A DNA stretch of 64,000 bases from the NCBI RefSeq assembly GCF_050920415.1, contig NZ_CP169309.1. One strand, written 5' to 3'. Positions within the stretch are counted from its first letter, which is position 1, and every line of letters begins with the position of its first letter. The notes beneath the pieces are model-generated. The model saw nothing but the letters and a program-made list of their open reading frames with translations, was not told the origin of the DNA and searched no databases. This document shows, in pieces, positions 58,946-59,376 of this stretch. Origin of the DNA: Escherichia coli. Its GTDB lineage: Bacteria; Pseudomonadota; Gammaproteobacteria; Enterobacterales; Enterobacteriaceae. A program made the position numbers and the translations under genes.

Positions 58946-58962
58946 TATGTTATAACATAACA
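58946..58962. promoter_or_regulatory. Zur box upstream of ykgM (rpmE2)
   Basis: TATGTTATAACATAACA containing the perfect 12-bp palindrome ATGTTATAACAT, about 15 bp upstream of the rpmE2 start; ykgM-ykgO is a known Zur-repressed operon. Confidence 0.7.
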
Positions 58963-58972
58963 GGTAAAAATG

Positions 58973-59236
58973 ATGAAACCCAATATCCATCCTGAGTATC
59001 GTACTGTGGTGTTCCATGACACCAGTGTTGATGAGTACTTTAAAATCGGCTCGACTATCAAAACAGACCGTGAGATTGAGCTGGATGGCGTAACGTATCC
59101 GTACGTGACAATTGATGTCTCTTCGAAATCGCACCCGTTCTATACAGGGAAGCTGAGAACAGTGGCATCAGAAGGAAATGTTACACGATTCACCCAACGT
59201 TTTGGTCGTTTTGTTAGCACGAAAAAGGGGGCGTGA
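58973..59236 (+). CDS. rpmE2: Ribosomal protein L31 paralog type B (zinc-independent), 87 aa
   Basis: [32 protein letters not shown]…; lacks the CxxC zinc motif. Confidence 0.9.
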
Positions 59237-59376
59237 TGAAAGTCCTTAACTCTCTGCGTACCGCAAAAGAACGCCATCCAGACTGTCAGATTGTGAAGCG
59301 AAAAGGACGGCTGTATGTGATTTGTAAATCTAATCCACGTTTTAAGGCCGTTCAGGGGCGTAAGAAAAAGCGTTGA
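59236..59376 (+). CDS. rpmJ2: Ribosomal protein L36 paralog, 46 aa
   Basis: [46 protein letters not shown]; start overlaps the rpmE2 stop (TGATG). Below the ORF-track size cutoff, found by reading the sequence. Confidence 0.85.

Follow-up and report, generated by a model that had tools for sequence, protein, structure and literature searches.

The question raised by this locus is whether the palindrome in front of a pair of alternative ribosomal protein genes is an operator bound by Zur, or an inverted repeat that has another role or none. The sequence that we analysed, hereafter the window, is a stretch of 64,000 nt of E. coli chromosome, and the two genes are ykgM (rpmE2) and ykgO (rpmJ2), standing in the order ykgR, ykgM, ykgO, ykgL as annotated in matching E. 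coli genomes. A preliminary description of this DNA treated the arrangement as already known, and rightly so: it is the same locus as the K-12 ykgM-ykgO operon, which is well studied and fully known already, and there is nothing new at ykgMO itself. Judging from the sequence, we regard it as nearly certain that the E. coli ykgM-ykgO operon is directly repressed by Zur. The zur gene itself lies outside the 64-kb window. The features on which the argument draws are listed below.

58911..58916, plus strand: predicted −35 hexamer TTGAAA (consensus scan)
58934..58939, plus strand: predicted −10 hexamer TATCTT (consensus scan), ending 4 nt before the operator
58944..58961, no strand assigned: Zur operator, a perfect palindrome of 18 bp, GTTATGTTATAACATAAC, centred between 58952 and 58953 (arms of 9 bp)
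58962..58967, plus strand: Shine-Dalgarno-like AGGTAA region for ykgM, with AGG at 58963-58965, 7 nt before the ATG at 58973
58973..59236, plus strand: ykgM (rpmE2), type B zinc-free (C−) L31 of 87 aa (RefSeq start; Pfam, NCBIfam)
59225..59231, plus strand: Shine-Dalgarno sequence AAGGGGG for ykgO, within the 3' end of ykgM and 4 nt before the ykgO ATG (read directly)
59234..59238, plus strand: TGATG stop/start overlap of ykgM and ykgO (sequence read directly)
59236..59376, plus strand: ykgO (rpmJ2), type B L36 of 46 aa (Pfam, NCBIfam)
59405..59465, plus strand: two strong hairpins 3' of ykgO (59405-59423 and 59425-59465; RNA fold), a candidate terminator region common to the convergent ykgL

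The identities of the two genes and the loss of their Cys motifs were computed directly. YkgM matches the Pfam family Ribosomal_L31 (PF01197) over its full length with an E value of 2e-24, and it passes the NCBIfam model NF002462 for type B L31 (121.9 bits, cutoff 86) while scoring below the cutoff of 70 for both canonical L31 models, NF000612 and NF001809 (58.4 and 52.6 bits). YkgO likewise matches Ribosomal_L36 (PF00444; E 4.7e-19) and passes the type B L36 model NF002021 with 91 bits against a cutoff of 70. Alignment with the K-12 RpmE protein shows that the C16-x-C18 and C37-xx-C40 motifs (CSC and CSKC) have become TSV and SSKS in YkgM, with T/V and S/S in place of the paired cysteines. 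YkgM contains no cysteine at all, all four zinc-binding Cys of L31 being lost, and it carries a 12-residue insertion relative to RpmE. The corresponding alignment for L36 places the RpmJ zinc ligands C11/C14/C27/H33 opposite H14/C17/C30/F36 of YkgO. These results support the view of both proteins as zinc-independent paralogs of L31 and L36, given by the preliminary description. An alternative in-frame ATG for ykgM is present at 58970.

YkgO has been described as a protein without the zinc motif. It retains two of the three RpmJ cysteines (C17 and C30), and H14 stands where RpmJ has its first cysteine. The final zinc-ligand His, changed to Phe, is the sole ligand replaced by a non-ligand residue, leaving a residual H-C-C set. 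As far as the alignment goes, the zinc ribbon of YkgO is incomplete and not entirely erased.

The palindrome preceding ykgM had been described as a perfect 12-bp repeat that matches the Zur box. That 12-mer, ATGTTATAACAT, is present at 58947-58958 and forms the core of the longer palindrome GTTATGTTATAACATAAC, whose true length is 18 bp. The earlier observation is thus confirmed, having slightly understated the extent of the repeat. Perfect palindromes of at least 12 bp are found 22 times in the window with 19.5 expected from dinucleotide shuffles, and those of at least 18 bp once with 0.5 expected. Because perfect palindromes occur at chance frequency, palindromy alone is no evidence for a Zur site; it is the specific sequence and its position that exceed chance. 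No occurrence of the 18-mer with up to 3 mismatches is expected (100 shuffles), and the single-dimer pattern GTTATNNNATAAC is matched three times in the window, compared to an expectation of 0.05 from shuffles.

Gilston et al. 2014 (PMC4219657) solved the structure of the Zur-DNA complex. In it there are two dimers, each of which reads RNNNYxxxRNNNY, with a 5-bp offset between them, and the inverted repeat of 18 bp that results is RNNNYRNNRYNNYRNNNY. The operator in the window holds two overlapping single-dimer sites GTTATNNNATAAC, at 58944-58956 and 58949-58961, and 58944-58961 agrees with all 18 positions of the two-dimer pattern RNNNYRNNRYNNYRNNNY, with TTATAA at the centre. The RNNNY skeleton of RNNNYRNNRYNNYRNNNY has no specificity by itself: it is matched 224 times in the window where 279 matches are expected. 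A more specific 20-mer pattern in IUPAC code from the same study, TGWNAYRWTATAWYRTNWCA (PMC4219657), is matched at 19 of 20 positions, and the operator is the sole site of the window with one mismatch or fewer. The single mismatch falls on the first position, with G for T, just as it does in K-12.

One of the checks proposed for the Zur assignment was a motif scan with a Zur matrix. We built a symmetrised matrix of 24 columns from the K-12 (MG1655) sites of znuC, zinT and pliG, leaving out ykgM to avoid circularity. With this matrix, derived from three sites only, the maximum of the window falls on the operator (58941-58964, 18.97 bits, the highest among about 64,000 positions). The next non-overlapping match scores 13.0 bits, and of 300 shuffled windows 3 attained the top score. 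The classical 23-bp consensus GAAATGTTATAWTATAACATTTC is matched at 17 of 23 positions in the register starting at 58944 and at 16 of 23 in the mirror register starting at 58939, the two closest matches that the window offers. Six or fewer mismatches to GAAATGTTATAWTATAACATTTC were reached by 14 of 100 shuffled windows, so that 17 of 23 is not significant alone. The two registers are 5 bp apart, which is the offset between the two Zur dimers. What makes the predicted Zur operator convincing is the combination of the structure-based pattern, the leave-one-out matrix and the identity to the tested K-12 operator, and on these three grounds the assignment made in the preliminary description is supported.

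The operator sequence, its specificity and its identity to K-12 were computed directly. The K-12 ykgM-ykgO (L31p/L36p) locus has the same neighbours, with ykgR upstream and ykgL and matA/ecpR downstream. The 18-bp operator of K-12 PL31p, its predicted promoter hexamers, the TGATG junction and the downstream hairpins are identical to those of the window. From the −35 hexamer through the ykgM start codon the only difference between K-12 and the window is a T-to-C change at position 58942, just beyond the 18-mer. YkgO is 100 % identical and YkgM 99 % identical between the two, with the single change A71T, and over 58600-59461 about 3 % of bases differ by neutral-looking polymorphisms. The other K-12 Zur operators, those of znuA/znuC, zinT and pliG (GTGATATTATAACATTTC, GTTACAATATAACATTAC and GTTATATTATAACAGTTC), share the RNNNYRNNRYNNYRNNNY skeleton and a central TTATAAC core, and the ykgM site is the only perfect palindrome among the four E. 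coli Zur operators.

A considerable body of work bears on the K-12 operator. By EMSA, PL31p binds Zur with an apparent Kd of 0.025e-18 M^2, lower than that of the other three known Zur operators of E. coli; it is repressed about 560-fold in vivo and was ranked highest of the four for symmetry (PMC4219657). An earlier precedent for the K-12 operon is Panina et al. 2003, as cited in PMC4219657. Expression of a ykgM-lacZ fusion rose about 1000-fold when zur was mutated or TPEN was added (PMC7297116), and in E. coli Nissle the zinc chelator calprotectin induced ykgM-ykgO more than 1000-fold. In K-12, the literature reports that YkgM and YkgO replace L31 and L36 in ribosomes under zinc limitation and that YkgM itself represses rpmE expression. 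The same logic, in which a Zur-repressed zinc-free paralogue replaces the Cys-containing protein, is found for YtiA of Bacillus subtilis, RpmE2 of Neisseria and the mycobacterial operons of alternative ribosomal proteins. Outside Proteobacteria the operator sequences and operon contents differ; the E. coli operon here consists of L31B and L36B only.

To place the operator relative to the promoter we scanned 58600-59700 for sigma-70-like sequences. The only match is TTGAAA-17-TATCTT (58911-58939), where shuffled sequences give an expectation of 2.9. The −35 and −10 positions are kept in K-12, O157, E. albertii (−35 TTGTAA) and the divergent Escherichia strain SCPM-O-B-8794 (−35 TTGATA); the −10 hexamer is TATCTT or TATTCT across the alignment, and the spacer varies. 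From these hexamers the transcription start would fall at about 58944-58948, just within the left end of the operator. Because no mapped ykgM transcription start site was found in the literature, this placement rests on the consensus scan and the hexamer conservation. A mapped Zur target of Vibrio cholerae has the same layout of operator and promoter. The Zur footprint is reported to be about 30 bp (PMC4219657), so that the −10 hexamer through the Shine-Dalgarno sequence would be covered.

Within Escherichia, the operator is more constant than its surroundings. Over 58600-59700 the window shares 100 % identity with strain MFDS1022581, and its identity to about 5,000 other complete genomes is 95-99 %. 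A 33-bp query of operator plus leader was mismatch-free in 4,701 of the 4,731 matched E. coli records, some of these alignments spanning only about 90 % of the query, whereas over the 541-bp ykgMO locus nearly all E. coli genomes reach no more than 95-99 % identity to the window. In an alignment of the window with K-12, O157, E. albertii and SCPM-O-B-8794, the 18-mer is invariant and the flanks vary.

The ykgMO locus was unmatched in about 6-7 % of complete E. coli genomes, and 12-14 of its matches fall on records labelled plasmid. One of them, 'plasmid unnamed3' of MS 69-1 (64 kb), carries ykgR-ykgM-ykgO-ykgL-ecpR with several frameshifts and small indels, among other places inside the operator region. 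This record looks like a chromosomal contig, rich in errors, that was misassigned.

The same 18 bp also recur far beyond Escherichia. An exact-match scan over one genome per species found the 18-mer in at least 120 places, compared to a rough chance estimate of about 4 at uniform base composition and up to tens in AT-rich genomes. Among the 120 loci listed, 118 belong to Alpha-, Beta- or Gammaproteobacteria, one to a Brevinema metagenome-assembled genome and one to an unclassified bacterium. As neighbour genes we took the ORFs starting within 250 nt on either side of the 18-mer, clustered them and named the clusters with Pfam. A zinc-related family adjoins the 18-mer in 96 of the 120 places listed. 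The families beside it in these 120 are the COG0523/CobW GTPases (30 places), Fur-family regulators and ABC ATPases (14 each), TonB-dependent receptors (10), ZnuA and Peripla_BP_2 (8 each), L31 (7), FolE2 (6), ZinT and M15 peptidases (4 each) and ZrgA (2). In two more of the places listed, the gene that directly follows the box is L36B. By Pfam, three neighbour proteins are of the L36, DksA and hexapeptide-repeat types.

Seven of these loci encode L31B: those of E. albertii, an Escherichia strain, two Moritella, Aliivibrio, Enterovibrio and an Acinetobacter metagenome-assembled genome. The 18-mer lies 10-36 nt before the L31B start codon in all seven, and in six of the seven L36B is tightly joined, with a gap of −4 to +3 nt. 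At the level of sequence, the recurrence of the 18-mer is independent comparative evidence for a Zur operator and for the L31B/L36B pair as a conserved unit.

Several ORF families that lack a Pfam match also lie directly beside the 18-mer (loci L020, L052, L071, L079, L097, L103, L107, L121 and others). They include a 74-aa family at 11 Bradyrhizobium-type loci, a 50-aa family at 6 loci, which are Alcaligenaceae where checked (Castellaniella, Paralcaligenes), a 445-aa family without a Pfam match at 4 loci and a 321-aa family at 3 loci, Pelagibacteraceae included. Proteins with DUF1826 and DUF2946 are found there likewise. These unnamed families are candidate zinc-starvation genes, but the short ORFs among them may in part be spurious, a product of GC-rich DNA.

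Could the palindrome be a chance feature of AT-rich intergenic DNA with no regulatory role? The ordinary frequency of palindromes in the window, as common as in shuffles (22 against 19.5, and 1 against 0.5), would fit such an origin, but the independent Zur matrix ranks this very site first, the sequence is identical to the experimentally bound K-12 operator, the 18-mer stays invariant where its flanks diverge, and it stands verbatim beside zinc-regulon genes in 96 of the 120 places listed. Matrix, recurrence elsewhere and invariance effectively refute a chance origin, which we leave next to no probability. Equally little credence is due to the idea that the palindrome serves another member of the Fur family, for instance Fur, or some other regulator in place of Zur. 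Fur-family boxes are all AT-rich inverted repeats and cross-recognition is conceivable in principle; the best alignment of the site to the Fur consensus GATAATGATAATCATTATC, however, has 9 mismatches in 19, the central TATA is described as Zur-specific and absent from the Fur box (PMC4219657), and in other genomes the exact 18-mer stands beside zinc genes rather than iron genes.

An explanation of a different kind is that the palindrome acts mainly in RNA and not as a DNA operator: the 5' end of the ykgMO mRNA would fold into a hairpin beside the Shine-Dalgarno sequence, and this hairpin would govern mRNA stability or translation. A transcript starting at about 58944-58947 could indeed form a 7-bp stem with a 4-nt loop (−6.1 kcal/mol) that ends 1 nt before the AGG. 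Against this, the 18-mer of other genomes is found between divergent genes and at varying distances of 0-130 nt from start codons, as fits a DNA site and not a positioned RNA element; the hairpin matches no Rfam family, none being found at gathering thresholds in the whole window; and repression has been reported to be zur-dependent at the mRNA and the reporter level. We therefore consider it very improbable that RNA structure is the main function, and a secondary role for the 5' hairpin may exist.

With the palindrome read as a Zur operator, the following sequence of events can be proposed, in which Zur binding, the fold repression, the replacement in ribosomes and the repression of rpmE would carry over from the K-12 literature by analogy. 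When zinc is sufficient, two zinc-loaded Zur dimers would bind cooperatively on opposite faces of 58944-58961, each dimer reading one GTTATNNNATAAC element, with the elements offset by 5 bp. Bound Zur would cover the presumed transcription start, and RNA polymerase would be excluded or stalled, keeping the operon silent; the exclusion is expected from an operator that starts 4 nt after the −10 hexamer and covers that start. When zinc falls, Zur would lose its regulatory zinc and leave the DNA, and derepression would yield a bicistronic mRNA with a short leader. Ribosomes finishing ykgM would go on to translate ykgO by means of the TGATG junction and the internal Shine-Dalgarno sequence. YkgM and YkgO would then replace the zinc-binding L31 and L36 in ribosomes, and YkgM would also repress rpmE.

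The junction between the two genes was said to couple their translation through TGATG. The overlap is present as described, the ykgM TGA (59234-59236) and the ykgO ATG (59236-59238) having one base in common, and the coupling itself is what we infer from this 1-nt overlap and from the AAGGGGG inside the end of ykgM.

Downstream of ykgO, the two hairpins at 59405-59465 have a folding energy of −31.7 kcal/mol (z −4.9), and none of 200 shuffles was as stable. They are conserved in K-12. They lack a canonical U-tract, and a scan for canonical intrinsic terminators gave no hit behind ykgO; their role would be that of a presumptive terminator. The convergent gene ykgL (59443-59637, minus strand) is an ORF of 64 aa in the window versus 75 aa in the K-12 annotation, and it is annotated as frameshifted in a near-identical RefSeq genome. 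In one RNA-seq study ykgL is among the top calprotectin-induced genes alongside ykgM and ykgO. This induction could come from read-through past the 59405-59465 hairpins.

The practical value of the locus is that of a dependable annotation marker of the zinc-starvation (Zur) regulon. By K-12 data it is the highest-affinity Zur operator of E. coli that the window carries unchanged, and in Alpha-, Beta- and Gammaproteobacteria alike the exact 18-mer marks Zur-regulated genes with great specificity. The ykgMO promoter already serves as the sensor in engineered probiotics that detect calprotectin (PMC10410751, PMC12279244). Current understanding is unchanged by this locus, and the finding is correct but ordinary.

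Elsewhere in the window, the sequence GTTATTATATAAC at 50001-50013 lies 31 nt before the rclB start (50044), just past the hairpin at 49948-49973 that follows rclA. It is an exact match to GTTATNNNATAAC, the other two matches in the window being both inside the ykgM operator. Scored as a two-dimer operator with the leave-one-out matrix, the site reaches only 11.55 bits, within the range of shuffles. The K-12 counterpart is GTTACTCTATAAC, and four of the six differences over 182 bp fall in or beside the motif; the 62-bp region around it is variable across E. coli. The K-12 sequence GTTACTCTATAAC and this variability led us to reject a conserved Zur site upstream of rclB, and we found no paper linking rclB to Zur regulation in the literature. 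The match is probably due to chance or strain-specific. That GTTATTATATAAC is a second Zur site, strain-specific and bound by a single dimer, seems unlikely on the sequence at hand; if true, it would tie zinc status to the rclABC oxidant-defence genes.

Other differences concern the strain background. The window is not colinear with the near-identical genome NZ_CP169399.1 upstream of about 51 kb. Relative to that genome, 31312-32640 is an insertion of 1.3 kb with two overlapping transposase-like ORFs, 31359-31769 (136 aa) and 31727-32632 (301 aa), which we take to be IS2 InsC/InsD-like. The insertion lies within pdeL (yahA, minus strand), about 105 bp from the 5' end of that gene, and pdeL is probably disrupted in the source strain of the window. 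The gene fdeC is annotated as intact in a near-identical reference genome, whereas K-12 has the eaeH pseudogene and IS3. In the closest reference genome a 12.3-kb island (36141-48472 of L006) splits rclA; the window is without the island and its rclA is intact, with the junction at about 49807-49813. The island encodes an integrase, a primase, an Icd-like protein, a major capsid protein, a head decoration protein and a head-tail connector, and it looks like a phage satellite.
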